DNA of 64,000 nucleotides from Minisyncoccota bacterium. Its GTDB lineage: Bacteria; Patescibacteriota; Minisyncoccia; Phycocordibacterales; UBA2100. The stretch is taken from positions 20,635-84,634 of the forward strand of contig DATDXU010000002.1 in the NCBI GenBank assembly GCA_036517195.1, given 5' to 3'. The notes under the pieces were generated by a model. The model was not told where the DNA came from. It worked only from the letters and a program-made list of their open reading frames with translations, and ran no database searches. Shown in pieces: positions 26,607 through 45,706 of the stretch. Made by a program: the position numbers and the translations under genes. The first letter of the stretch is position 1, and the number at the start of each line of letters is the position of its first letter.

Positions 26607-27758
26607 ATGGCACTCCTATGGTATTCTCCCTTTGTTGATCTTATAGCTTTGATTGGAGGTCCGTGCGGAGGGAAATCCACGGCTCTTGTGAAAGCGCGCT
26701 CATATCTTGAGAAGTATGGTATTCCAGTCTTTACACTCACAGAAACCCCAACTGAACTTATTGACGCAGGATTTTCTCCGCGAGCGGAAGATTGGTATTA
26801 TCAGACAGATTTTCAAAAGCACGTACTGCGGTACACGCTTGCGCGAGAGAATAGGTACATAGAAATGATTAAGGACCTGCATCTCAACCGTAAGGCAGTG
26901 CTTTTGTGCGATCGGCCTGTGTTTGGCGGAAGAGTTGCCTATATGTCGAAAGAGGAACACGATGCGCTTTTGACACGCGAAGGACTTTCTCTTGATGTAC
27001 TACTACATCGTTATCGTGCCGTTTTGCATCTTGTAACAGCTGCCGAGGGTGCTGAAAAGTATTATACGCTCGCGAACAACATGGCTCGAAAGGAAACAGC
27101 AGAAGAGGCGCGTGCGCTGGACAAGAGAACCATTGAATCGTGGAGTGGGCACCCCCGCGCCCACATCATTGATAACAGTACCGACTTTTCTGGTAAGATG
27201 CGTCGTTTTCAACAACTATTAGCAAGGAGTTTGGACATGCCAGAACCACTTGAGAAAGAGCGTTGGTTCGTCGTGTTGAATTTTCGTCCTGATTTTATTC
27301 CGGCAGGCACACCGCGAATGTACATTGTTCAGGATTACCTTAAGAGCTCCCCTAAGGTTGAGAGGCGAGTGCGCAGTCGTACTCTTTTTGGGGCGACACG
27401 TTTTTTCTACACGGAAAAAAGGCCGACCCTTGCTGTGGGCGAGCGCATCGAGGTGGAGCGGGAGATATCGGAGGCGGAGTATCGTGCACTTCTCACAGAT
27501 ACCACTGCATCCGTGACAAAAACTCGCTGGGGTATTCCATACGAAGGACATCATATGGAATTGGATGAATTTTACCAACCGATTTCAGGTCTTCATAAGC
27601 TCGAGATAGAGGTAGCTGACATGAAAGACCCAGTCACAATTCCTCCAGAGTGGAATGTGGTTGAAGTAACGGGAAATGCTCGTTTTGGTAGTCGCGGTAT
27701 TGCAACGGGTTCGCTTGGGTGCGGATTTTTCGTGCCCAGAAAATACGGACTTCTATAA
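26607..27758 (+). CDS. P-loop NTPase/kinase (AAA_28-like) fused to a C-terminal CYTH (triphosphate tunnel metalloenzyme) domain
   Basis: Walker A LIGGPCGGKST at the N-terminus. The C-terminal half begins EKERWFVVLNF, the CYTH ExExK signature, with conserved acidic/basic tunnel residues downstream. SD is aaagaagg. Confidence 0.65.
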   Translation: MALLWYSPFVDLIALIGGPCGGKSTALVKARSYLEKYGIPVFTLTETPTELIDAGFSPRAEDWYYQTDFQKHVLRYTLARENRYIEMIKDLHLNRKAVLLCDRPVFGGRVAYMSKEEHDALLTREGLSLDVLLHRYRAVLHLVTAAEGAEKYYTLANNMARKETAEEARALDKRTIESWSGHPRAHIIDNSTDFSGKMRRFQQLLARSLDMPEPLEKERWFVVLNFRPDFIPAGTPRMYIVQDYLKSSPKVERRVRSRTLFGATRFFYTEKRPTLAVGERIEVEREISEAEYRALLTDTTASVTKTRWGIPYEGHHMELDEFYQPISGLHKLEIEVADMKDPVTIPPEWNVVEVTGNARFGSRGIATGSLGCGFFVPRKYGLL

Positions 27759-27765
27759 GGGATAT

Positions 27766-27800
27766 AAACGGCCTCGCCATGACGGGGCCGTTTTTCTTTA
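27766..27800 (+). terminator. rho-independent terminator aaacggcc-tcgccatgacgg-ggccgttt + T-run
   Basis: 8-bp perfect stem followed by ttctttagg. Confidence 0.65.
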
Positions 27801-27886: not shown

Positions 27887-30800
27887 ATGATTCGACATCG
27901 AGAAGGGTCTCTCGCTTTTTTTGTTAAGTTCTGTATTTTCAGTATTTGTTTTCTCGCGGTATTTGCATTCTATACAACGTTCGTTCAGGCTGGCGTTTTT
28001 CAATTTGCAGACGGAGACCCGAAGCATCTGCGCGCGCTCTCGCTCGCTGCGGTAGAGGGAGCGGAAGCGGAGATCGATGTTGCGGAGAAAATCAATCTCG
28101 ACGAGAACTACACGCCGGAAGATTTCGGTATCGATAATCTCGGATTTCTTCCGAACAACCCGCTCTATGTGTTCAAAAGTTTGCGTCGTAGTGTAACATC
28201 TGCATTCACGTTTGACCCTGTTTCTCAAGCAGAATTGAAATTACAATTTGCGGCGGAAAAACTTTTGGAAGCGAAAGAATTGGCTGGGAGAGAGGGGGTA
28301 AGTGAAGGAACTATTACGCGTGCGCTCCAAAATTACGAAGACGAACTTGCGGGGATTGATAGGGAGGTGAGAGACGTGGGGAGTGCTGATCCAGAGCAAT
28401 CACTGGAGCTGGCGAGTACCGTCATGGATTCCATGACGAAGTATCAAAAAATGCTCGGCTCTTTTGACAAATCACTTTCTTCGGAATCGTTTGACACAGT
28501 GCAGGACATAAAAGACGCAACCGCGGAAACGTTTGGGGCTGTCTTTACCTTGGGAGAAGCTGGAGCAATTTCGGAAGAACTTGTCTCCGTTCTTGACACG
28601 CAATCAGGTTCCGAATTCAAGCATTTCAAAAACGCGGAAATATTGAAAGAACTAAGCGATAAAGCGCCTGTTGACGCTCACGAAGCACTGCAAGACGTAG
28701 AAGATAATGTGCTCAATAAACTGCAGGTGCAACTGGAGCAGTCTGACGCCGCGCAAAAAGCTATATTCAGCGATTTCGTGCAGGAAATAGGTGGCAGTGA
28801 AGTTCGTCACATTGAGGTCATTAATGAGCTTGAGGTACGACCTATTTCTGATGATGTTCGAGACGCTATTTCGGGTGTGAAAGAGGGGGTGTTGGCAAAA
28901 ACAGAAGATCGTCTTGAGGCATTTACGCCCGAGCAAAAAGAAAAATTTCTCGGGCACCTCGTCGGAGGCACTCTTGAGAACATCCGCGTCATTAAAGAGA
29001 TTGAAAACAGTGTTGCCGCGGGTGTGTTTGCTGGAATTGAAAAAGTAAAAACTCAAGCAACGGAGCAGTTCAAACAAAATATTGAGGAAGCGGGCACGAA
29101 CGATGAGCGCAAACAGGAGTTTACCAACTCAATCGAACGTTTTCACGATGCGAAGTCCATCTCGGTTCTTGAAGAAATAGGCGCGCTGATTCCGGACGAT
29201 AAGAAAGAGTTTTTTAACACACTCAAGCAGAAGGCTGCGCAAGAAATCAGGCGGGATATTGATGGCGCACGAAATGCCACGCAACGACAAGTTATTTACA
29301 AATCGCTTTCTGGAGACCACCCGGAAGATGTTGCCGCGCTAGAAAGCTTTGAAGGAGATATCGGGATATCAAGCTCTATGCGGGGAGTTTTGGACGCGCT
29401 TCGCGCTACGCAATATGGCCGCGTACAGAATCGTGCCGCGAATATTACGGACGCGAGCCGTTTGGAGAAATTTGAACAAGAATATCAAAAATACGAAACA
29501 TCGTTTGACGAGGCGCCGACTGGAACACGTCTCGAATCAACATTCAGAGACAGGAAAAATGTTTTCGATTCTCCGGATCGCGCGTACGACAAAATCGCGG
29601 AAGCGCGCGCCGCGCTCACAAAGCTTGAAAGTGTTGTAGATACCCTTCCGTTTGACGTCGGGTTTGAAGACGGACATTTTGACCCCGCGATTCAAGAAAT
29701 TGAGCGTATGCGCGCGGCGGCAGAAAAGAAACTGGGAGTTGCCGAAACATCGCTTGAATACAACGACGTGGGGCGGGCATTCGGAGAAGCGCAAGCCGCT
29801 CTTCAAATGGCGAAAAACGGCCTCTCCATGGCAACAGGATACAAGCAGGGAAGAAAGCAAGAAAAACAAGTGCTCGATTTCCTTCCAAAAGATTTCTATC
29901 AAAACGATACGGCTGTTCGTCCGAGTGTTACGGAAGGATTCAATTTGTACAATGCGTATGAGTTCAGTCAGTTCTGCGCGTTCACGGGCGGTTTCTTGAA
30001 AGGAAAGACACGCTGTGATTTTGCTGACGGACGATCTCTCGAAGTTCCGGGTGGCGCGTTTCCGTTCAGAATTCCACCCGAATTTGTTCCACAAAATGTA
30101 GTTCAAAAAGAAACAGATGGAAAACCGATTCCAGTCGGATGTCCTTCTGTGCCACCAACGTTTGGGAATTTCTGCGCGGGTGGAAAAATTGTGGATCAGT
30201 TTGACAGGAGGGGGTGTCAAATCGCGCCTCGTTGTGAATACAAAAATGTTGAAGATATGCCAATTCGTCCTGGGCTCGATCCAATCGATATGGAACGCAA
30301 ACTGCACCCAACTGATCCGACGCTCTGTGGTAGCTTCCAGGGGTATCAATGTCGCGAGGGGTACTACTGTGAGTATCCGAAAGACACCCGCTCTACCGAT
30401 GCGTTTGGAAAATGTGTAAAAGGAAACGAACAGGTAACCTGTCAGGCGTACTTCACCGGTTGGGTTTACGAAGCGAGCGCGAAAGGAGGAAGCCAGTGCG
30501 TGCAAAAGAGTGTTACCGGATGTACCAACCCATTCGTTTATATTTCGAAAGAGCAATGTGAACGCGGGCAAAACACAGACCCAAATACATATGAGGGAGA
30601 CGCGAATTCGTGCCCTGGATTTGCCTATAGTGCGTGGGATAAGAAGGGGGTACGTTATTGTCAACTCAATACGGAATACAGGTGTGATTACAATTATCCA
30701 AGTTACTTAACGAATGGAGCAAACTACAAGGCGGAAAATTGTCCGGCAGATTTGGTGACGGTGTATTGCGATTCCTACACCACAGAAAGTTCCTGCAAGA

Positions 30801-33043
30801 CGATAGCAACCTGTCAGTGGGGGATTCCATCGGGCGAAAGTGCAAAAAGATGTTATGTGTCTGGCAAGACGGGGATGTGTCCTTCAATGCCGACGGTGTC
30901 CAGTTGTCCGGCAGGGCAGAAAAGGGTAGTTTCATGGAGCTCACCTGAATGCGGTGAATACCATACGTGTATGAACGATACGCCGACCACGGACCAAACG
31001 TGGACACAAACCACATGGAAGTTCACTGACGGCGAACAAACGTCTATGATTCTCGACCGCTTAGACGCCGAGTATCAAAATTACTTGGCGCCTATTCGCG
31101 CGCAGTGTCTCACGATTTCCAAAGCGAAGTTTACATGGAGACAGGGCGCGGGAGATGATAGCGCAACAAACTGGAGAAACTTTGGTATTCCAGATTGTTC
31201 CGGTACGGCGACCACTAATTACCAATGTGGCAACAACATGTGTGAGATGAATGAAACGGCCCAATCGTGCCCGACTGATTGTGGTAGCACGGGAGGCGGA
31301 TGTGGCTGGTACATGAACGAAACGGCGTGTAAAACGGTGAACGGTTGTTCGTGGACCGCGATGTCCAGCAATTCGAATGGCGGATACTGCGCGCCGACAA
31401 GTACCAACTGGACACCACAGTGTTCCGACGGTAAAGACAATGACAGCGATGGAAAAATTGATTATCCAAACGATGCTGGTTGCTACGGCAAGACGGACGA
31501 CATGGAATCGGACAGCTTTGGGGGCGAGAGCGGTATGCGTCGCTGTTTTTACCCAAACACAACGAAAGGCGGCACGCACGTCGGGTGGACTATTTGGTGC
31601 GAGTCAGATTATGTGAATTGTCACTATGGAGACCCAGCTGGGAAAGTGTTTGATACTGCCGGTGCCTCTCTTGGTGCTCCATCAAGTTGCGAAAGCGGTC
31701 TTGGTGGAGGGTCAGGTGGCGGATGCGGCATATATATGACAGACGCAACATGTAAGGCCATGTCTGCATGCCGCTGGGCGACGGGTACTTCCGGTGGAGG
31801 ATACTGTGAACCGATACCCACGACATCAGGCGCGATGCAGTGTTCCGACGGCAAAGACAACGACAGTGATGGGCAAATTGATTATCCGGCTGACACCGGC
31901 TGTTACAGCAAAGAAGACCCAGACGAAGCGTATGCGGGGACTGGGACGACCTATGTGGGAGACGCAAATTCTTGCCCGAGCTTTGCCTACAGCAGATGGG
32001 ATACAAAAGGTGTCAGGTACTGTCAGCTTAATGCAGAGCGAAAGTGTGATTATAACTATCCAAGCTACATAACGAATGGCGCGAATTATAAAGCGGAAAG
32101 CTGTCCGGTAACTGATTCCACGATCACCACTACTGCTACGATGAGTTGCATGGGTACCTATACAACACAGACATCGTGTCAGAGCGCGGGATGCACGTGG
32201 TTTGCCAGTCACTATGACGGTACGCACTGTGATAACGCGGCGCATGGAAGTTCAGGCACTGGCACCAACTCTTCACAGTATGGCTCGTGCGCGAATTACA
32301 CCTCGCAATCATCATGCACAAGTGTCACAAACTGCAAGTGGTTTACCGGTTCAGGGTCTGGGAATACGTCGTACTGCTATTACGAGAGCGGAACATCAGG
32401 TTCCTCGTGTTCTTCTGGACAGTATTGGAACGGTAGCGCATGCGTTACCTCTACAACAACCGGAACTACATGCCAAACGGGTCAATACTGGAACGGGAGT
32501 AGTTGTGTCACGTCTTCAACGACGCAGTATTCTTCGGATCCAGCGACCGCGTGCGCGCAGGGGGGCGGCTCATGGAACAGTTCGACAAGTTATTGCACAA
32601 TGTCGAATTCATCCGCATGTACATCAGGTCAATATTGGAACGGTAGCGCGTGTGTTACTTCTTCAACAACGGGGTCTTCATGCCCATCGGGCCAGTGGTG
32701 GAATGGTTCAAGTTGTGTGAATACATCCACGACAGATTGTCCGTCGGGGCAATACTGGAGTGGCTCAAGCTGTGTCACCAGCTCTTCCTCAACCACAGAT
32801 TATTCCAGCATGCAGTCGTCGTGCGCGTCTGCCGGTGGCACGTGGGATTCTACAAGCAACTATTGCCAGATGCCATCAACCTCAAGTTCGTCTTCTTCAA
32901 CATCGTGTCCGTCTGACCAATATTGGAACGGTAGCTCGTGCGTAACAACATCTTCGTCTGATACCACCTCTTCGTACACTCCACCCCCTTCAACAGACAC
33001 AACAACTACGTACACACCACCCCCTACAACAACGACCCCCTAA
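27887..33043 (+). CDS. giant (1718 aa) secreted/cell-surface cysteine-rich modular protein
   Basis: Single 5.1-kb ORF.
- N-terminal signal-anchor (FFVKFCIFSICFLAVFAFY).
- About 700 aa of acidic helical region.
- A duplicated Cys-rich module (GGGCGxYM..T.CK....C.W......GGYC.P......QCSDGKDNDSDGxIDYPxDxGCY...D.DE, then Y[EV]GDANSCP[GS]FAYS.WD.KGVRYCQLN.E.KCDYNYPSY[LI]TNGANYKAE[NS]CP).
- Six tandem copies of C-x-SGQYWNGS-x-CV-(S/T)n.
- An S/T/P-rich tail. Confidence 0.85.
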   Translation: MIRHREGSLAFFVKFCIFSICFLAVFAFYTTFVQAGVFQFADGDPKHLRALSLAAVEGAEAEIDVAEKINLDENYTPEDFGIDNLGFLPNNPLYVFKSLRRSVTSAFTFDPVSQAELKLQFAAEKLLEAKELAGREGVSEGTITRALQNYEDELAGIDREVRDVGSADPEQSLELASTVMDSMTKYQKMLGSFDKSLSSESFDTVQDIKDATAETFGAVFTLGEAGAISEELVSVLDTQSGSEFKHFKNAEILKELSDKAPVDAHEALQDVEDNVLNKLQVQLEQSDAAQKAIFSDFVQEIGGSEVRHIEVINELEVRPISDDVRDAISGVKEGVLAKTEDRLEAFTPEQKEKFLGHLVGGTLENIRVIKEIENSVAAGVFAGIEKVKTQATEQFKQNIEEAGTNDERKQEFTNSIERFHDAKSISVLEEIGALIPDDKKEFFNTLKQKAAQEIRRDIDGARNATQRQVIYKSLSGDHPEDVAALESFEGDIGISSSMRGVLDALRATQYGRVQNRAANITDASRLEKFEQEYQKYETSFDEAPTGTRLESTFRDRKNVFDSPDRAYDKIAEARAALTKLESVVDTLPFDVGFEDGHFDPAIQEIERMRAAAEKKLGVAETSLEYNDVGRAFGEAQAALQMAKNGLSMATGYKQGRKQEKQVLDFLPKDFYQNDTAVRPSVTEGFNLYNAYEFSQFCAFTGGFLKGKTRCDFADGRSLEVPGGAFPFRIPPEFVPQNVVQKETDGKPIPVGCPSVPPTFGNFCAGGKIVDQFDRRGCQIAPRCEYKNVEDMPIRPGLDPIDMERKLHPTDPTLCGSFQGYQCREGYYCEYPKDTRSTDAFGKCVKGNEQVTCQAYFTGWVYEASAKGGSQCVQKSVTGCTNPFVYISKEQCERGQNTDPNTYEGDANSCPGFAYSAWDKKGVRYCQLNTEYRCDYNYPSYLTNGANYKAENCPADLVTVYCDSYTTESSCKTIATCQWGIPSGESAKRCYVSGKTGMCPSMPTVSSCPAGQKRVVSWSSPECGEYHTCMNDTPTTDQTWTQTTWKFTDGEQTSMILDRLDAEYQNYLAPIRAQCLTISKAKFTWRQGAGDDSATNWRNFGIPDCSGTATTNYQCGNNMCEMNETAQSCPTDCGSTGGGCGWYMNETACKTVNGCSWTAMSSNSNGGYCAPTSTNWTPQCSDGKDNDSDGKIDYPNDAGCYGKTDDMESDSFGGESGMRRCFYPNTTKGGTHVGWTIWCESDYVNCHYGDPAGKVFDTAGASLGAPSSCESGLGGGSGGGCGIYMTDATCKAMSACRWATGTSGGGYCEPIPTTSGAMQCSDGKDNDSDGQIDYPADTGCYSKEDPDEAYAGTGTTYVGDANSCPSFAYSRWDTKGVRYCQLNAERKCDYNYPSYITNGANYKAESCPVTDSTITTTATMSCMGTYTTQTSCQSAGCTWFASHYDGTHCDNAAHGSSGTGTNSSQYGSCANYTSQSSCTSVTNCKWFTGSGSGNTSYCYYESGTSGSSCSSGQYWNGSACVTSTTTGTTCQTGQYWNGSSCVTSSTTQYSSDPATACAQGGGSWNSSTSYCTMSNSSACTSGQYWNGSACVTSSTTGSSCPSGQWWNGSSCVNTSTTDCPSGQYWSGSSCVTSSSSTTDYSSMQSSCASAGGTWDSTSNYCQMPSTSSSSSSTSCPSDQYWNGSSCVTTSSSDTTSSYTPPPSTDTTTTYTPPPTTTTP

Positions 33044-33049
33044 TTCCGC

Positions 33050-33085
33050 AAAAAAGAACCCCCCGATTTCGTGAGGGGGGGGTGA
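33050..33085. terminator. bidirectional terminator cccccc-gatttcgtga-ggggggg flanked by A6/T-rich
   Basis: Lies between the giant gene (+) and the convergent 33093-33596 (-) gene. Confidence 0.6.
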
Positions 33086-33092
33086 AAGGGTG

Positions 33093-33596
33093 TTATTGGA
33101 GTGCGGGACACGGATAGGTGGCGCACAGCAATTTCCATGCCATGCGCGATTTTTCCATTGCCTCTTTCCACAGGGGAGAGTGTTGGTTGATTCTTTTTGT
33201 CGGCGGCTCACGTTCATTCTGGAGACCGGTCATCCTTTTCTTGATGGTGACGATGCGGTCGTTTTCCCAAAACTCCCACGACGTAATGTGTATGCCATAC
33301 GTATTTTTTCGTGCAACCCGTTCCTCAACCATCCAACGTCCACCGTCACCGAAAGAGTAAAAGTGAACGGCAAACACTTTCTCATCTCCGGATTCGCCCC
33401 GTAAGGGTGTCAGTACACTTAAGCTCACGGTTGGCGGATGGGTTTCAATTATTTTTCCGAATTCTCTCATATTTTTTTCCATCGCGCGTATCACGTCCCC
33501 ACTTGGATATGGCTCAAACGCGAATGTGGGCGAAGAAAATCCGACACTTGCGGCAATGGTGAGAGCCACAACTTGGGCGATCATGGATGTGTTCAT
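33093..33596 (-). CDS. hypothetical secreted protein (signal peptide, 167 aa)
   Basis: N-terminal MNTSMIAQVVALTIAASVGFSSPTFA, then a hydrophilic domain. Confidence 0.5.
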   Translation of the reverse strand: MNTSMIAQVVALTIAASVGFSSPTFAFEPYPSGDVIRAMEKNMREFGKIIETHPPTVSLSVLTPLRGESGDEKVFAVHFYSFGDGGRWMVEERVARKNTYGIHITSWEFWENDRIVTIKKRMTGLQNEREPPTKRINQHSPLWKEAMEKSRMAWKLLCATYPCPALQ

Positions 33597-33821: not shown

Positions 33822-35960
33822 ATGTCCGAAGGCGCACGCACATCAAAAATACTTACTTTAGAGGAACTCAAAAGCGACATATACAAAAGTGAGTTTTGGA
33901 AAGAAATGCCCTTTGGGGAATACTTGAATCTTGCACATACGTTTCCATCGGTTTCAAATTCCGCGTATCAGCGAATGTACAAAACGATTGTAGGTCAGGG
34001 CATGCATCCTTACAAATTTGCGGGCCGTGACTACATTCATTACACTGCTTTCGATGATCCGTGGGAAGATGGAAAAGACGCAGTGTTTGGTCTTGATCGG
34101 ACACTCATGCGTCTCGTTGATGTGCTTCGTGCGGGAGCCGCTCGTCTCGGACAAGAACGTCGCATTATCCTGATGCATGGTCCGGTTGGTTCTTGTAAGA
34201 CCACAATCGCGCGCCTTCTTCGGAAAGGGATTCAGGCAAACACCAAGACAGACGCCGGTCAGTTATATACATATTCGTGGCTTGCGAAAACTGACGAAGA
34301 TCGCCTCATTCTCGGACTTTCGTCGTCAAGCGATGCTCAACGAATACATAACAAGGTTTCCTGTCCTGTTCACGAAGATCCGCTGATGTTGCTACCTCCA
34401 GATGCGCGCGGACAAGTGGTTGCAAAAATGAATTGCGTTTCCACTAAGGGGACTGAGCGCGGTCGCGAAGAACTCATTGAGTTCGAGGGCGAACTATGTC
34501 CTGTGTGTCGTCTGATGTATCAAGGATTTCTGCGTAAGTATAAGGGAGACTGGAAGAAAGTAATTTCGGAACACATAGAAGTGCGTCGGCTCATCTTCTC
34601 CGAAGTTGACCGTATCGGCATTGGTTCGTTTCGTCCGAAGGACGAGAAGAATCAGGACTCCACTGAATTAACCGGTGACATGAACTATCGCAAGATTGCG
34701 GAGTATGGTTCGGAGTCTGATCCTCGCGCGTTTAATTTTGACGGTGAGTTTCAGGTTTCCCATCGTGGCTTCTTCTATGTAGAAGAGGCGCTCAAACTTG
34801 ACAAAGCGTTTTTGTACGACTTTCTCGGCGCAAGCCAAGAGCATGTCGTAAAACCGAAGCGTTTCGCGGAGATGTTTATCGACGAGGTTCTTATGGCTGG
34901 TACGAATAATCCAGAATATGAGAAGCTTCGAGAAGACGATAGCATGGAAGCGTTTCGCGATCGAACGACGCGTGTTGATGTCCCGTATGTCCTTCGTCTT
35001 GACGATGAGAAACGCATCTATAACAAGGTGTATGCTACTATCTCTGGAGGAAAACACATCGCTCCACACACACGAGAAATGGCATCACTGTGGGCGATTT
35101 TCACGCGCCTCAAAAATTCTGAAAGAGAAGTGACGCGTGGGCTCAAACTTAGAGACAAGGCGCGCCTGTATAACGGGAAGGTTGTACATGGATATACTGA
35201 CGAACATGTGCAGGACCTTCTGGGTGAGCATCCCGAGGAAGGAATGAGTGGTATTTCTCCTCGATATGTGAACGACATGATAGGTGCTGCTATTGTGAAG
35301 GATCTTCAGGCGCCGTGCACATCGTGGTTCGCCGTTAAGCGTGAACTCGAAGACGGTCTCAAAACCCACTCTCTCATCAAGGGAAGTAAGGGTTCTGGTA
35401 AACGCGAGGACTATCTAAAATATCTTTCCTATGTTATGGAAGAGTTCGATAATATAGTCAAAGAAGAAGTGCAAGAGGCGGTTGCTGGAGATGAAAATGA
35501 TCTCAAGCAGTTGTTTGAGAAATATGTTAATCATCTGGTCGCATATATCAACGGCGAAAAAGTTCTCGATCATCGAGGAGAGCGCGTTGTTCCAGACGAA
35601 CGCCTCATGCGTGAAGTCGAAGAAAAGATTGAAGTTAGTCCGCAACACAAAGATGAATTTCGTCGTCGAGTCGTGCAAACTATGGGTACACGGGCAAGAC
35701 GCAAGGAAGAGTTTAATTACAAAACGGATGAACGTTTGTATCGCGCCTTGCGTTTAAAGTTGTTTGAAGACCGCAAGGACACCATTAACCTCTCAACTCT
35801 GCATACAGGGGTTATTGATCCTGGAGAGCAGGAGAAGATTGAGGTGGTGAAGAAGCGTCTCAAGCAAAACGCGGGGTACTGTGATCATTGTGCAACGCTG
35901 GTTTTGAACCACGTCGCGTCCATTTTTGCACGCGGAACAAGCACGAAAAACAAGGCCTAA
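33822..35960 (+). CDS. prkA: PrkA-family AAA+ protein (putative serine protein kinase PrkA/YeaG)
   Basis: N-terminus resembles YeaG/PrkA (SAYQRMYKTIVGQG vs SAYANAAERLLMAI). Walker A ILMHGPVGSCKTTIARLL. Length is 712 aa. SD is aggaaagagagg. Confidence 0.8.
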   Translation: MSEGARTSKILTLEELKSDIYKSEFWKEMPFGEYLNLAHTFPSVSNSAYQRMYKTIVGQGMHPYKFAGRDYIHYTAFDDPWEDGKDAVFGLDRTLMRLVDVLRAGAARLGQERRIILMHGPVGSCKTTIARLLRKGIQANTKTDAGQLYTYSWLAKTDEDRLILGLSSSSDAQRIHNKVSCPVHEDPLMLLPPDARGQVVAKMNCVSTKGTERGREELIEFEGELCPVCRLMYQGFLRKYKGDWKKVISEHIEVRRLIFSEVDRIGIGSFRPKDEKNQDSTELTGDMNYRKIAEYGSESDPRAFNFDGEFQVSHRGFFYVEEALKLDKAFLYDFLGASQEHVVKPKRFAEMFIDEVLMAGTNNPEYEKLREDDSMEAFRDRTTRVDVPYVLRLDDEKRIYNKVYATISGGKHIAPHTREMASLWAIFTRLKNSEREVTRGLKLRDKARLYNGKVVHGYTDEHVQDLLGEHPEEGMSGISPRYVNDMIGAAIVKDLQAPCTSWFAVKRELEDGLKTHSLIKGSKGSGKREDYLKYLSYVMEEFDNIVKEEVQEAVAGDENDLKQLFEKYVNHLVAYINGEKVLDHRGERVVPDERLMREVEEKIEVSPQHKDEFRRRVVQTMGTRARRKEEFNYKTDERLYRALRLKLFEDRKDTINLSTLHTGVIDPGEQEKIEVVKKRLKQNAGYCDHCATLVLNHVASIFARGTSTKNKA

Positions 35961-35975
35961 CTATGGGCATGTGGG

Positions 35976-36012
35976 GGGACGGAAGGTGTAACCTTCCGTC
36001 CCTTTCTTTTTT
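35976..36012 (+). terminator. rho-independent terminator ggacggaagg-tgtaa-ccttccgtcc + ctttctttttt
   Basis: 10-bp perfect stem plus a T-run, directly after prkA. Confidence 0.7.
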
Positions 36013-36069
36013 AAATACCCATGAGAGTATGTACATAGAATAGATAGGTACAAAGAAAGGTAGGGTGCG

Positions 36070-37308
36070 ATGACAAGACGTATTACGCAAGATGAACAAG
36101 AATTTCTCGACATCCTTCGTGGAAAGTGGCGTACGGGTGAGCTATTGAAATATTTGCAACGTGGCCAGATAACCATTCTTGGTCCCGGCAAAGGTTTCAG
36201 CATCCCCATGGAAGAAATCATTATTCCTCGGGCACACCTTGCCCCCATACCACCTGACGCAGAGTTGCAAGAAACGGGTGATGGGAAAGAGGGTGACGCA
36301 AATGTTGGTCCGGATATTGGCATAGGGCAAGGTCCAGGAAAACCCGGAACTGACCTCGGTCCAGTTGAGGGTGATGACGGAGAGGGAAGTGAGGGAGGAG
36401 AACGCTCGGCCGGAAGTGGTCGCGGGGGCGACGTCGAGCGTGTTGAGGTTCCTGCTGATGAGGCGTATGAGCTTTTTGCAGAAATGCTCGAACTTCCCCG
36501 TATTCAACCGAAGGGTGACAAGTCGATTACAAAAGAAGAGTGGAAATATACAGATATTCGGAAAACTGGACCCGATTCACTTGTACACAGACGCCGTACG
36601 CTCAAAGAAGCCTTGAAACGCAATATCGCAGAGGGAACGTATGTGCCGGAGCGTCCACGAATTATTGTTGAACGTCCCGACAAACGGTACCGTATTCCGG
36701 AAGTTATCAAAAAGCCAAAAAACAACGCAGTCATCTTCTTCATGATGGATGTGTCTGGTTCCATGACCTCCGAGGATAGAAAAATGGTGCGTTATTTTTG
36801 CGCACTGTTTGAATTTTGGCTCGTTGGAAATTTTGATGGTATAGAGATTGTGTGGATTATTCACGACGGAGAGGCCGATCGTGTTGATCGCGATACATTC
36901 TTCAATACCTTTCGCGCAGGAGGAACGGTGGTTTCAACGGCGCATGCGCTTATGCTCAAGATTATTGACGAAGAGTTCCCGCCAGCGAATTGGAATATTT
37001 ATCCAGTGTATCTTTCAGACGGGTTCAATTTCGGTGATGACGATGACCTGTGTCTGGAACTTATACGAGAAAATACTCTTCCAGTTGTAAATCAATATAC
37101 GTACTGTGAAGTTTCTGCTGAACGCGAGTGGTGGGGAGCCACACTTGCAGAGGGCGGAGATCCGAATAGTCGCTTCTCTCCCTCGGGAAGTTTTGGAAAA
37201 ATGCTCCAAGACAATTTTTCCAATGACACTCGGGTTGCATGTACGAACCTGAAGAAGATACAAGACATTCCTGGGGCACTGAAAGCAGTATTCGGAAAAG
37301 GAAACTAA
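36070..37308 (+). CDS. YeaH/YhbH-like protein (DUF444, vWA-like)
   Basis: MIDAS-like MMDVSGSMTSEDRKM. Gly/Asp/Glu-rich low-complexity N-region as in YeaH. Positioned between prkA and spoVR. Confidence 0.75.
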   Translation: MTRRITQDEQEFLDILRGKWRTGELLKYLQRGQITILGPGKGFSIPMEEIIIPRAHLAPIPPDAELQETGDGKEGDANVGPDIGIGQGPGKPGTDLGPVEGDDGEGSEGGERSAGSGRGGDVERVEVPADEAYELFAEMLELPRIQPKGDKSITKEEWKYTDIRKTGPDSLVHRRRTLKEALKRNIAEGTYVPERPRIIVERPDKRYRIPEVIKKPKNNAVIFFMMDVSGSMTSEDRKMVRYFCALFEFWLVGNFDGIEIVWIIHDGEADRVDRDTFFNTFRAGGTVVSTAHALMLKIIDEEFPPANWNIYPVYLSDGFNFGDDDDLCLELIRENTLPVVNQYTYCEVSAEREWWGATLAEGGDPNSRFSPSGSFGKMLQDNFSNDTRVACTNLKKIQDIPGALKAVFGKGN

Positions 37309-37319
37309 GGAGGAATATC

Positions 37320-39539
37320 ATGACTGCAACTCTTCGCGTACGACCACAATTTCCGACGCACTTGAAACATTGGAAGTATGAAATCGAGCGGATTGCCAAA
37401 AGACTCGGTCTTGAATTATATCCGACCGATTTTCAAATGGTGGACCATGAAGAAATATCCGAACTTGCCGCATACCAGGGGTTTCCTGTTCGGGGACACC
37501 ACTGGTCCTACGGACAAGAAAGTTTGCGTATGAAAAAATCGTATCGATGGGGTCTCCACATTATCTATGAGATGGTTATTCCTACGAATCGACCGTGCTA
37601 TGCATATCTTCTTGATGTAAATCCCGATAGCATTCAAAAACAGGTGATGGCGCACGTCTATGGCCATAACGACTTTTTCGGAAGAAACATTTGGTTTCGA
37701 GATGTGCCGGGGAATCTCCATGATCGTTTCGGCGATAATGCAATGCGCCTTGAGGAGATGCGTCTTGAACACGGCAAAGAGAAGGTGGATAGGTTTCTTG
37801 AGGCCTGTATGTCTCTCGATAATCTCTTCAATCCTCTTGACCCTCTTGAGTTACAAATTTCGCCTCCCCAGTCTCTTGCGGGATCTTTACCAGGTCCCAT
37901 GAAAGAGAAGCGTCATCCGAAACGTCTTATTTCGAACGAGGCGTTGCCGGGATACATGGATGAATACATTAATCCTCCAGAGTGGCTTGATGAAGAGAGG
38001 CGGCGTCTGGCAGAAGAAGAAAAAGTAAAATCTGATATTGCGCGCGGTGTGCGTGTTCCTGAAAAGCCGATTCGTGACATCCTCGGCTTTGCTCTTGTGC
38101 ACGCCCCTCTAGAGCCATGGCAACAAGAAGCCGTACGTATGGTACGTGAAGAAAGTCAACCTCTATGGAAAGGTGCCCAAACAAAATTTATGAATGAGGG
38201 GTGGGCGGCTCTTTGGGAAGCGGAAATTATGGCTGGTCAGGGCGTTGCACTTGATTCAGAGGTGTGTTCTTTCGCGCAGGCGTATGCCGGTGTACAGGGA
38301 GGTGAAGGTTCCATCAACCCGTATCGTCTCGGTAAACAATTGTGGGACGATATCAGAATGCGATGGGATACCGGTCGGCATGGGCGAATCTGGAACGAGT
38401 GTGTTGACGGCACAATTAAGAAACGATGGGAGGAATTCATTGTATTCAAGTCCCTCTATGATGAGCATGGAGGTGCGACCAGTGAATTTTCCAAAGAGTG
38501 GGATGAGTTTGTTACCCTTGTTCACGAAACCCGCGAGGGCCGTGGGTGCGTACGGAATGCCTTTTTTCTTCCAGAAAACGTTGTCACAGAGTGGTTATAC
38601 TATAAGAAATCCGTAGAAAAACTTAAGGAACTTCAAATAGCCATGAGGGATGTGCTCGAGCTGGAGGCAAAGGCACGCACATCTACCAAAAACGGCGATG
38701 AGGAAAAAACCGCGTGGTTTAAACGTCGGTGGGATGCGATCAAGATCTCCAACTCTCCCCATCGCTTCTGGTCTTCCAAAGAACTACAAGTTGAAATTGA
38801 TCGTTGTACGTTCTACATACAGTTTAAGGAACGTATTTCAAAGGGGGATGTGGCTGTGTTGCAGACCCCAATTCCACACGAGTGGGTGTATTGGGCGAAA
38901 CGTCACGAACTCCTTGGTGGTCTCGGCAAAGGGCTCGAAAAAATGTTTGAGGTGTGTGCGACGCACAATGACGCAAGCTTTGTTGACGACTTTTTTACTT
39001 CCGATTTTTGTGCTAGACATGGGTACTACACAATCGGCATGGGAAAATCGTCTCAACAGCCGTTCGCGAGCGAGGACCGATATGTTATCAGTTCTCGTAA
39101 TCACTTGCGTGTGAAGCGCCTCCTCCTCAACATGCTTCTCGGAAAGCCGAAGATATTGTTGGTTGATGCGAACTTCAACAATAATAACGAGTGGCGTCTC
39201 ATTCATCTTCACGACGGTCGCGATATTTGTTACGCGGGTTGTCACATCTGCAACGGCAAGAGCAGTATGAAAGATGTGATGGAGAGGATATACATCGTAT
39301 GGAATAGAAAGAAGGCGGTGCACCTTGAAACAATTAAAACAGAATGGCCAAAACGGAAACCACCCTGGTACTACTGGTATCCGCCCGGTTGGTCAGGGCC
39401 GGAAATCGAAAGACCTAAACATCGATGGGTTCGATACTCGTGCATAGATGATGTGCACGCGACCAATGTTTTACCGTTCGAGAGTGTGGATGAAGATATA
39501 AGAAAACTTCTCCCCCACATTCCAGATACTCTTGAGTAA
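37320..39539 (+). CDS. spoVR: SpoVR/YcgB-family protein
   Basis: ELAAYQGFPVRGHHWSYGQE...WGLHIIYEMVI...AHVYGHNDFF matches the SpoVR N-terminal core. Start at ATG 37320 with an aaggagga SD; the track ORF extends 27 codons further upstream into yeaH. Confidence 0.8.
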   Translation: MTATLRVRPQFPTHLKHWKYEIERIAKRLGLELYPTDFQMVDHEEISELAAYQGFPVRGHHWSYGQESLRMKKSYRWGLHIIYEMVIPTNRPCYAYLLDVNPDSIQKQVMAHVYGHNDFFGRNIWFRDVPGNLHDRFGDNAMRLEEMRLEHGKEKVDRFLEACMSLDNLFNPLDPLELQISPPQSLAGSLPGPMKEKRHPKRLISNEALPGYMDEYINPPEWLDEERRRLAEEEKVKSDIARGVRVPEKPIRDILGFALVHAPLEPWQQEAVRMVREESQPLWKGAQTKFMNEGWAALWEAEIMAGQGVALDSEVCSFAQAYAGVQGGEGSINPYRLGKQLWDDIRMRWDTGRHGRIWNECVDGTIKKRWEEFIVFKSLYDEHGGATSEFSKEWDEFVTLVHETREGRGCVRNAFFLPENVVTEWLYYKKSVEKLKELQIAMRDVLELEAKARTSTKNGDEEKTAWFKRRWDAIKISNSPHRFWSSKELQVEIDRCTFYIQFKERISKGDVAVLQTPIPHEWVYWAKRHELLGGLGKGLEKMFEVCATHNDASFVDDFFTSDFCARHGYYTIGMGKSSQQPFASEDRYVISSRNHLRVKRLLLNMLLGKPKILLVDANFNNNNEWRLIHLHDGRDICYAGCHICNGKSSMKDVMERIYIVWNRKKAVHLETIKTEWPKRKPPWYYWYPPGWSGPEIERPKHRWVRYSCIDDVHATNVLPFESVDEDIRKLLPHIPDTLE

Positions 39540-44881: not shown

Positions 44882-45706
44882 ATGGAACACATTCTAATTA
44901 CCAAGGCAGATGGGGAGGAGGAGATATTTAATCCAAACAAGCTCGCGCGCTCGCTCGAACATGCCGGGGCTTCGCGTGAAGCGCAAAAAAAAGTGCTTGC
45001 GCGCGTTATGGGGGCACTGCGTCCACTCATGAAAACAGAAGAAATTTATCGGACTGCGTTTGAGGAGTTGCGGCGCGTGGAAGAAAAACCAATTGCGGCG
45101 CGCTATTCAATAAAACGCGCCGTGCTTGATTTGGGGCCATCGGGATTTCCTTTCGAACAATTTCTTGCCGAAGTATTGCGGGCGCATGGGTATGTGTGCC
45201 GTGTCGGGGTGGCACTGACGGGACGGTGTGCTCCGCATGAGGTAGATGTGCTCGCCGAAAAGGGGGAGAGGCGCATTGGCATTGAGGCAAAGTTTCATAA
45301 TGACGCGAGTGGGAAAACAGATATCAAAGATGCGCTCTATGTCCGTGCGCGATACGACGATTTGGCGCATGCCCCGGAAGCGTCTTCGCGTGTGAATGAG
45401 TGGTGGCTTGTTACGAATACGCGCTTTACATACAACGCAATTCAATATGCGCAGTGTTCAAACCTCACACTCGTTGGCTGGGATTATCCGCGGACGAAAA
45501 GTTTAGTGGCGCTCATCGAAGAGGCGCGCGTGCACCCACTGACGTGCCTCACAACATTGTCTGAAGGTGAAAAACGCCGATTTTTAGAAGAGAGAATTGT
45601 GTTATGCAAAAATGTGCAGACACCTCACTTGCTCAGGGAGTATGGGGTGGAACCGAATCGCATTCCGGACGTTCTCGATGAGGCGAAGCGCTTGTGCGGA
45701 ACATAG
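44882..45706 (+). CDS. ATP-cone domain fused to a Mrr/restriction-endonuclease-like PD-(D/E)xK nuclease domain
   Basis: N-terminal HILITKADGEEEIFNPNKLARSLEHAG...ARYSIKRAV fits the ATP-cone (V.KRDG..E.F...KI ... Y..Y). Then EVDVLAEKGERRIGIEAKFH (D...ExK) and WWLVTNTRFTYNAIQYAQ...TLVGWD resemble the Mrr catalytic core. Confidence 0.6.
   Translation: MEHILITKADGEEEIFNPNKLARSLEHAGASREAQKKVLARVMGALRPLMKTEEIYRTAFEELRRVEEKPIAARYSIKRAVLDLGPSGFPFEQFLAEVLRAHGYVCRVGVALTGRCAPHEVDVLAEKGERRIGIEAKFHNDASGKTDIKDALYVRARYDDLAHAPEASSRVNEWWLVTNTRFTYNAIQYAQCSNLTLVGWDYPRTKSLVALIEEARVHPLTCLTTLSEGEKRRFLEERIVLCKNVQTPHLLREYGVEPNRIPDVLDEAKRLCGT

Follow-up and report, generated by a model that had tools for sequence, protein, structure and literature searches.

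A giant DUF5667-family protein of Patescibacteria with a large helical domain, a Kunitz-like module and a variable disulfide-rich array

Introduction

A large part of bacterial diversity belongs to the Patescibacteria, or Candidate Phyla Radiation (CPR). An attached life on other cells is presumed for many of them, and the molecules at that interface are little known. Here we ask what kind of protein is encoded, and what it may do, by an open reading frame (ORF) of 1718 residues on the forward strand of a 64,000-nucleotide stretch from a Minisyncoccota bacterium (contig DATDXU010000002.1, positions 20,635 to 84,634). We refer to this stretch as the window and use its own numbering throughout. 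A sequence-only reading of the window had singled out the ORF as a modular, cysteine-rich surface protein, matched by no family that it recognised, and had suggested an adhesin or host-interaction protein of a symbiotic or episymbiotic organism.

We find that the ORF encodes an exported, modular, disulfide-rich protein. From the N- to the C-terminus, a signal peptide is followed by an all-alpha domain of about 625 residues and then by some 25 small modules, one of which looks like a minimal Kunitz domain. The account that we favour, tentatively and at a strength a little short of probable, is that of a giant, Sec-exported, disulfide-stabilised and probably Ca2+-binding mosaic of the DUF5667 family from Kaiserbacteria-like Patescibacteria, which would serve as a surface scaffold for both protease control and attachment.

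Large (>1500 residues), repeat-rich proteins of Parcubacteria (OD1) have previously been proposed as putative adhesins (Nelson and Stegen, 2015; PMC4508563), and the general kind, that of large CPR surface mosaics, is therefore already known. These proteins share with the present one their phylum-level group, size class, internal repeats and inferred surface role. That report covers beta-sheet repeat proteins in general terms, and the DUF5667 family, the alpha domain and the inhibitor-type core are not part of it. What is newly delimited here is the helical domain of about 625 residues without a solved relative, the alternation of Kunitz-like and Kazal domains across its family, and several uncurated module families.

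A large helical domain shared across the family

Translation confirms the ORF, and the identical 1718-residue protein is present on eight public contigs; NCBI names it 'DUF5667 domain-containing protein' and assigns it to a Candidatus Paceibacterota metagenome-assembled genome (MAG). Two of these contigs, one from a JGI sample and one from an ENA sample, were inspected and carry the same neighbour genes. Because an identical protein is found on eight contigs of differing sources, an assembly artefact is excluded. Full-length homologues number 23 (1100-1800 residues, E-values down to 0), and their lineages are Parcubacteria-type CPR throughout. With a Kaiserbacteria MAG as the closest genome, the earlier guess at a CPR organism proved right.

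The window protein scores above the gathering threshold of Pfam DUF5667 (PF18915), as do all 23 full-length homologues. None of the 7.7 million full-text papers searched contains a mention of this family. The Pfam model spans only a stretch of about 75 residues, whereas the alpha domain folds as one unit of roughly 625: AlphaFold2, run on a 26-sequence alignment, predicts residues 36-660 as a single all-helical domain of about 32 helices (predicted local distance difference test, pLDDT, 87.2; predicted template modelling score, pTM, 0.87), for which a specific match in the PDB was not found. According to this model the segment is a defined fold and no floppy acidic stalk. The sequence-only reading, which had placed an acidic helical region of about 700 residues here, is borne out in both acidity and helicity, but the loose helix gives way to a single folded domain. 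Its statement that the protein is matched by no family is only partly right: it is not supported for DUF5667, for the NF033662 repeat and for the Kunitz-like module described below, but holds for about eight module types without a curated match.

Scanning a single genome for each GTDB species showed relatives of the alpha domain in at least 97 species-representative genomes. Of these 97 loci, 80 (L005-L084), all on different contigs, were kept for the family analysis. Their record titles, where informative, name Kaiser-, Sung-, Taylor-, Nealson-, Portnoy-, Azam-, Niyogi- and Gribaldobacteria and Paceibacter, all of them Patescibacteria lineages. Some records are titled merely 'bacterium', and several bins from co-assemblies bear the names 'uncultured Saccharibacteria' or 'uncultured Gammaproteobacteria', of which the gammaproteobacterial ones look doubtful. 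Candidatus Kaiserbacteria RIFCSPLOWO2_01_FULL_50_24 has the closest locus, with 68% identity.

The N-terminus had been described as a signal anchor. Read by eye, it looks instead like a cleavable signal peptide, and the conservation of AxA-type sites in the homologues, followed by an FQF motif, suggests that it is probably no anchor. The motif (Q/G)(V/I)FQF, directly after the predicted cleavage site (27992-28006), is conserved family-wide. Cysteines total 78, two of them in the signal peptide and 76 beyond residue 697, and all 76 extracellular cysteines are located in modules of even cysteine count, which fits a fully disulfide-bonded extracellular protein. In an alignment of the 23 homologues, residues 36-900 and 1000-1135 are conserved and the C-terminal part is variable. 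A search for the same modules in CPR, as proposed with the sequence-only reading, finds them again in Parcubacteria-type homologues; when their motifs are counted, these proteins prove to differ widely in the types of module present and in the copies of each, which we interpret as classic module shuffling.

A Kunitz-like module in the conserved core

Residues 850-895 look like a two-disulfide Kunitz/BPTI-like domain (PF00014; MEROPS I2), a view to which four independent lines of sequence comparison and modelling lead. The best PDB sequence match of the conserved-core profile is TFPI Kunitz-2 (E = 0.026), with the cysteines in register. Proteins that match only this region of the profile pass the Pfam Kunitz_BPTI cut-off of 21 bits (P0177 with 80.6 bits, P0139 with 25.6 and P0113 with 22.5), and P0113 carries cystatin domains beside its Kunitz unit. 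An hhalign comparison of the family module with ten canonical Kunitz sequences gives a probability of 64.9% and E = 6e-5. The predicted fold is a beta-hairpin followed by a C-terminal helix. The cysteine register fits the C14-C38 and C30-C51 pairs of TFPI Kunitz-2 and BPTI, the aromatic core reads W-V-Y where BPTI has Y-F-Y, and Ala is found at P1' in both; the predicted P1 and P1' residues of the window domain are Gln853 and Ala854. C843 is assigned to the preceding module, and its spacing differs between homologues. Of the module types, this Kunitz-like one alone could be likened to a well-characterised domain of known function.

The conserved-core profile, searched with HMMER against 1.84 billion cluster representatives, retrieved 457 proteins (131 at E <= 1e-10), among which each core module is found alone in many architectures. 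A four-Cys unit of the form CQAYW.G.E(F/Y)D...SGC.NPF is also seen in secreted two-domain proteins of about 125 residues (P0136, P0139, P0144 and P0169) and in P0113 (528 residues). From such sequences it looks as if minimal Kunitz domains form a wider subfamily that Pfam detects marginally. Module c, directly preceding the Kunitz-like domain, is possibly a Lustrin_cystein-like unit: its relatives P0180 and P0186, also retrieved by the core profile, score about 30 bits on Pfam Lustrin_cystein (PF14625; cut-off 27), and the window protein itself has no direct Pfam match to that family. A literature search for Kunitz domains in Patescibacteria found nothing.

Alternation of Kazal and Kunitz-like domains

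Among the 80 alpha-domain loci, a scan of the ORFs with module hidden Markov models (HMMs) finds giants with one Kunitz-like module at 14 and shorter proteins (about 370-1170 residues) with one Kazal signature, C-x5-P-V-C-G-x-D-G-x-T-Y-S-N-x-C...C, at 34 (examples are L049 2773-4239, where a Nealsonbacteria protein of 488 residues is encoded, L055 and L047). The two domains occur together at none of the 80. Hence at least 48 of the 80 alpha-domain proteins bear exactly one domain of a canonical-inhibitor type. All seven Kazal fragments tested score above the Pfam Kazal_1 and Kazal_2 cut-offs. The complete genome of a Nealsonbacteria member provides an example of the short form, in which the signal peptide and alpha domain are followed by module b, the Kazal domain and a small tail rich in Cys, and P0167 has the same layout with module c in addition. 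The Kazal domain of the shorter relatives occupies the place that corresponds to the Kunitz-like domain of the giants and, like the latter, is a two-disulfide minimal version.

The predicted P1 residue is the most variable position of the Kazal loop, with nine residue types in 34 sequences. A variable P1 is typical of canonical inhibitors. We found nothing on this Kazal/Kunitz pattern in the literature searched. Taken as a sequence pattern, an alpha domain followed by either a Kazal or a Kunitz-like domain points to protease binding at least as strongly as to adhesion.

Distal modules, acidic repeats and duplications

Within the Cys-rich region the "W" domain, of 70 residues, is the most invariant segment and holds the majority of the invariant residues. 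Module b occurs alone and in tandem in other proteins, and in the short members of the family it stands ahead of the Kazal domain. The GDANSCP motif, reported earlier as occurring twice, is indeed present from residues 904 and 1358, and its module has 22 instances in 19 retrieved proteins. Searches of Pfam, NCBIfam and PDB sequences and fold comparison gave no match for the GQYWNGSxC hairpins, the W domain, the GDANSCP, CFYPN and CGxY modules or modules a, b and e. The same module types turn up in further secreted proteins of Patescibacteria, some with PG_binding_1, and most modules of the window protein seem confined to this group. Comparison of the core model with the PDB by Foldseek gave nothing below E = 1, and PDB profile searches with GDANSCP and CFYPN gave only chance-level matches (C-type lectin, E = 0.56; streptavidin, E = 0.14). 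Pfam searches of ten separate segments at E <= 10 returned only DUF5667 plus sub-threshold matches, of which Trefoil, CBM_14 (E = 0.033), DUF5874 and a VSG C-terminal domain were dismissed as chance. The weak CBM_14 and DUF5874 matches are those of the C-terminal mini-loop array.

The C-terminal array contains the six GQYWNGSxC-type units noted earlier, with the form C-x2-(G/D)Q(Y/W)W(N/S)GS-x-C and found at residues 1508, 1529, 1578, 1599, 1618 and 1674, as well as two units of the form C-A-x-x-GG(S/T)W(N/D)S-x3-YC, whose GG(S/T)W(N/D)S...YC matches start at residues 1560 and 1650. Ser and Thr together make up 37-50% of each 100-residue section in the C-terminal 300 residues. N-glycosylation at the NGS of GQYWNGS was considered and set aside, because some of the units and homologues have Ser or Asp in place of the Asn.

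The Asp-rich loop CSDGKDNDSDG(K/Q)ID is found twice, from residues 1179 and 1319, as had been described. It belongs to an acidic repeat whose consensus it shares with NCBIfam NF033662 ('acidic double-disulfide repeat-containing protein'); the window units each have one Cys pair. NF033662 matches two stretches of the protein, and the best, residues 1316-1340, spans model positions 4-27 of 32. The whole-protein score of 34.8 bits, with two copies only, lies below the curated cut-off of 41; homologues with at least four copies (P0002, P0004 and P0018) score 67-86 bits, and the low score is thus attributed to few copies rather than to a different repeat. Over 145 aligned sequences the consensus is Q-C-S-D-G-x-D-N-D-x-D-G-x-I-D-Y-P-x-D-x-G-C...D-x-D-E, in which D-N-D-x-D-G-x-I-D is invariant. 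The NF033662 repeat is also found as tandem arrays in assorted shorter metagenomic proteins without DUF5667. Its DxDxDG-type stretch is of a class that we take to be a Ca2+ loop motif, and the repeat probably binds Ca2+. The likeness to thrombospondin type-3, dockerin and EF-hand loops consists of the D-N-D-x-D-G-x-I-D motif and flanking disulfide-forming cysteines and is one of motif level only. The resemblance proposed in the sequence-only reading thus holds for the signature but not for family membership, as the Pfam models TSP_3, Dockerin and EF-hand have no match on these segments even at E <= 10. A literature search on the acidic repeat found nothing.

Two copies of about 75% DNA identity had been described for each of two repeat pairs, which holds for one pair but not for the other. 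Pair B (30587-30746 and 31949-32108) is 75% identical in DNA over 160 nt and 76% in protein, with an alignment score of 120 against 17 +/- 2 for shuffled sequence. Pair A (about 31283-31522 and 31706-31942) is 58.5% identical in DNA and 54% in protein over 78 codons, and 90% DNA identity is limited to a 50-nt core. By codon position, the differences in pair B amount to 28 of 53 third positions and to 6 of 54 and 6 of 53 first and second positions. The six hairpin units have a mean DNA identity of 66% and differ at 62% of third codon positions, and Tandem Repeats Finder reported nothing. Third-position bias, the divergence of the hairpin units and the silence of Tandem Repeats Finder together support the earlier view that the repeats are old and under purifying selection.

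Possible roles in protease control, attachment or a coat

According to the account that we favour, the conserved alpha domain would hold or organise the protein on the cell envelope after export and removal of the signal peptide. The Kunitz-like core would bind, and probably block, a serine protease in a substrate-like manner, a role suggested by its fold class and by the Kazal/Kunitz alternation. Ca2+ and disulfides would stiffen the variable outer array, which would bind ligands on a partner cell or matrix, as module shuffling and the aromatic hairpins suggest.

Several observations weigh against this account. Pfam Kunitz_BPTI has no match on the whole protein or on residues 791-900, even at E <= 10. 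Four of the six canonical Kunitz cysteines are present; the C5-C55 pair is missing, and there is no C55. Because this disulfide and a direct Pfam match are absent, we call the domain Kunitz-like and not a confirmed member. Unlike BPTI, it is embedded in a 1718-residue bacterial protein, and its putative reactive loop T-C-Q-A-Y-F is highly conserved in the giant clade, with an unusual Gln at P1. A loop so conserved speaks for a structural or fixed-partner role more than for the hypervariable loop typical of inhibitors. A comparison of neighbourhoods among homologues found that gene order around the family is not conserved and that a protease partner gene is absent there. If the signal peptide is cleaved, no LPXTG, SLH or C-terminal motif is seen by which the cell could retain it. 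That the distal modules bind ligands is wholly inferential.

The alternative that survives best, and that we judge somewhat unlikely, is a pure adhesin, in which the Cys-rich modules, the Kunitz-like one included, are non-inhibitory binding or spacer units that tether the CPR cell to a host. Kunitz folds often serve in non-inhibitory roles, and the conserved Gln-Ala-Tyr-Phe loop with Gln at P1 counts for this alternative too. The shuffling of distal modules among homologues, the FN3-like units that they carry, and the aromatic mini-hairpins with their S/T linkers, which suggest glycan binding, argue in the same direction, as does the earlier reading of large Parcubacteria repeat proteins as adhesins (PMC4508563). 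Attachment by itself, however, leaves unexplained why the common denominator of the family is an alpha domain with exactly one domain of Kazal or Kunitz-like type, and this down to members of 370-500 residues that are otherwise without recognisable domains. No adhesin, lectin or carbohydrate-binding module family scores above threshold in Pfam, and an anchor is not evident. The S/T/P-rich tail is, as had been noted, without a sortase signal: neither an LPxT[GAS] nor an NPxTG motif is present, and the C-terminus has neither a hydrophobic segment nor a basic tail.

Many secreted proteins of Patescibacteria share a short C-terminal motif, amphipathic and rich in aromatic residues, which the window protein lacks. 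Examples among the homologues are P0013, P0014, P0017 and P0019 (…GASIWQAFGSWLKGE), P0018, P0020 and P0021 (…GASLFTPFLKLFGF), and P0025 and P0026 (…ITLPARAFGL); the motif is also present in P0009, P0031, P0048, P0054 and P0124. Such an end might act as a signal for sorting or anchoring that is peculiar to the lineage. No NCBIfam model reports the C-terminal motif of P0018.

A structural part of the envelope, S-layer-like or wall-associated, in which self-assembly or wall binding by the alpha domain would be combined with a protective coat made of the Cys-rich part, appears quite improbable. Points in its favour are the large size, acidity (pI 4.6) and secretion of the protein, an S/T-rich tail that is possibly glycosylated, and an alpha domain that is both predicted as one rigid unit (pTM 0.87) and widespread in Patescibacteria, as the 80 kept loci on 80 contigs illustrate. 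S-layer proteins are typically Cys-poor, in contrast to the 76 extracellular cysteines found here. Pfam finds no SLH or other wall-binding domain in the whole protein, and the C-terminal architecture varies strongly even among close relatives. Literature searches on CPR S-layer proteins and on CPR Cys-rich proteins found nothing.

The idea that the ORF is a chance or low-complexity frame, or that the assembly is chimeric, has a vanishingly small chance of being correct. Its one supporting point is the biased composition of the C-terminal 300 residues (37-50% S+T), and it is refuted by the eight contigs, the 23 homologues, the purifying selection in the duplicates and the confident structure prediction.

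The mosaic of protease control and attachment that we favour has eukaryotic counterparts. Lustrin A, papilin, agrin and WFIKKN are extracellular mosaics of inhibitor-type, Cys-rich and S/T-rich modules. The window protein resembles them in having a possible Lustrin_cystein-like unit next to a Kunitz-like one, many small disulfide modules and mucin-like linkers. Unlike them it is bacterial and most of its modules seem confined to Patescibacteria, and common descent is not evidenced beyond single domains.

A broader proposition, which we consider unlikely as a whole, is that these proteins form a class, lineage-wide in Patescibacteria, in which the DUF5667 alpha domain presents a minimal two-disulfide inhibitor of Kazal or Kunitz-like type. 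In Kaiserbacteria/Sungbacteria-type lineages the class would have grown to matrix-like giants from at least eight seemingly CPR-restricted module families, and it would neutralise or capture serine proteases of the host or the environment at the episymbiotic interface and also attach. If true, it would offer a molecular entry point, open to testing, to the survival of ultra-small symbionts on their hosts and to their hold on them. Should the inhibitor reading fail, what is left is a clearly bounded example of a large CPR surface mosaic, and not an exceptional one. In either case the locus supplies a family-wide architecture, a fold class for one conserved module, a model of the DUF5667 region and about eight uncurated disulfide modules.

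Features and genomic neighbourhood

The coordinates of the gene, its modules and the flanking hairpins are collected in Table 1. With a terminator-like hairpin on either side, the gene looks monocistronic, a transcription unit of its own. A module-HMM search found no paralogues or extra modules elsewhere in the window.

Table 1. Features of the DUF5667-family gene and its immediate flanks, in window positions.
Feature	Residues	Positions	Strand	Remarks
Terminator-like hairpin of upstream AAA_28 gene		27766..27793	+	11-bp stem, 7 GC pairs, T-rich tail
Complete coding sequence	1-1718	27887..33043	+	1718 residues; mature protein ~182 kDa, pI 4.6
Signal peptide	1-35	27887..27991	+	probable cleavage between VQA and GVFQF; sole hydrophobic segment of protein
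Large acidic all-alpha domain	36-660	27992..29866	+	pI 4.6, no Cys; common to whole family
Pfam DUF5667 match	87-162	28145..28372	+	39.1 bits, cut-off 27; E = 1.1e-9
Four tandem helical repeats	236-468	28592..29290	+	~58 residues each
Module a	688-736	29948..30094	+	2 Cys, small alpha/beta unit; pLDDT ~90 in core model; family-conserved
Module b	752-784	30140..30238	+	4 Cys, CPxxxxPxxxFCxxGxIVxxxDxxGCxxxPxCE; family-conserved
Module c	807-846	30305..30424	+	4 Cys, CGxxxGxxCxxGYxCExP...DAxGKC; possibly Lustrin_cystein-like
Kunitz/BPTI-like domain	850-895	30434..30571	+	4 Cys; C852/C871/C879/C891 align with BPTI C14/C30/C38/C51
GDANSCP module copy 1	900-955	30584..30751	+	4 Cys, aromatic-rich; 76% identical to copy 2
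CGxY-type module copy 1	961-990	30767..30856	+	4 Cys; module HMM, independent E-value (i-E) = 1.7e-6
Module e	998-1028	30878..30970	+	4 Cys, CPxMPTVxxCPxGQKxVxSxSSxECGxYxxC; family-conserved; independent in other proteins
"W" domain	1038-1106	30998..31204	+	2 Cys, W..W.F.DG...R.D.EY...C...F.W..G....NW.NFGIPDCSG
CGNNxCExxETxxSCPxDC motif	1114-1132	31226..31282	+	4 Cys; up to 11 copies in homologues
CGxY-type module copy 2	1139-1168	31301..31390	+	i-E = 1.9e-9; within repeat pair A
Acidic repeat (NF033662) copy 1	1179-1212	31421..31522	+	CSDGKDNDSDGKIDYPNDAGC...D.E; NCBIfam match; module HMM i-E = 6e-16
CFYPN module	1217-1270	31535..31696	+	4 Cys; 14 instances in 13 proteins
CGxY-type module copy 3	1280-1307	31724..31807	+	i-E = 6e-12
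Acidic repeat (NF033662) copy 2	1319-1352	31841..31942	+	NCBIfam match, module HMM
GDANSCP module copy 2	1355-1410	31949..32116	+	repeat pair B, module HMM
CGxY-type module copy 4 (HYDGTHC variant)	1421-1448	32147..32230	+	i-E = 2.4e-7; variant recurs in homologues
CGxY-type module copy 5	1468-1497	32288..32377	+	i-E = 1.8e-9
Eight single-disulfide mini-loops with S/T-rich linkers	1508-1685	32408..32941	+	
S/T/P-rich tail	1686-1718	32942..33040	+	no recognisable anchor
Terminator-like hairpin between convergent genes		33059..33078	-	just 3' of big gene

The upstream gene (26607-27758, +) encodes an AAA_28 domain at residues 13-194, followed by about 190 residues without a Pfam match; it adjoins the big gene on the two other contigs inspected and not in more distant homologues. 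Downstream lies a convergent ORF of 167 residues (33093-33596, -) with a hydrophobic, signal-like N-terminus and no Pfam match, which is also found beside the big gene on other contigs. In the Sungbacteria homologue P0006 (L002 4391-5888), DsbA/thioredoxin-type genes lie directly upstream. This arrangement hints at local disulfide-forming machinery; it is absent from this window and from L001, and so is not general. A stress-associated trio of PrkA, DUF444 (YeaH-like) and SpoVR genes (33822-39539, +) is located directly downstream, with a SpoVR-like ORF of 766 residues, and an ORF at 44882-45706 (+) joins an ATP-cone to an Mrr_cat restriction-endonuclease domain, a seemingly odd pairing.

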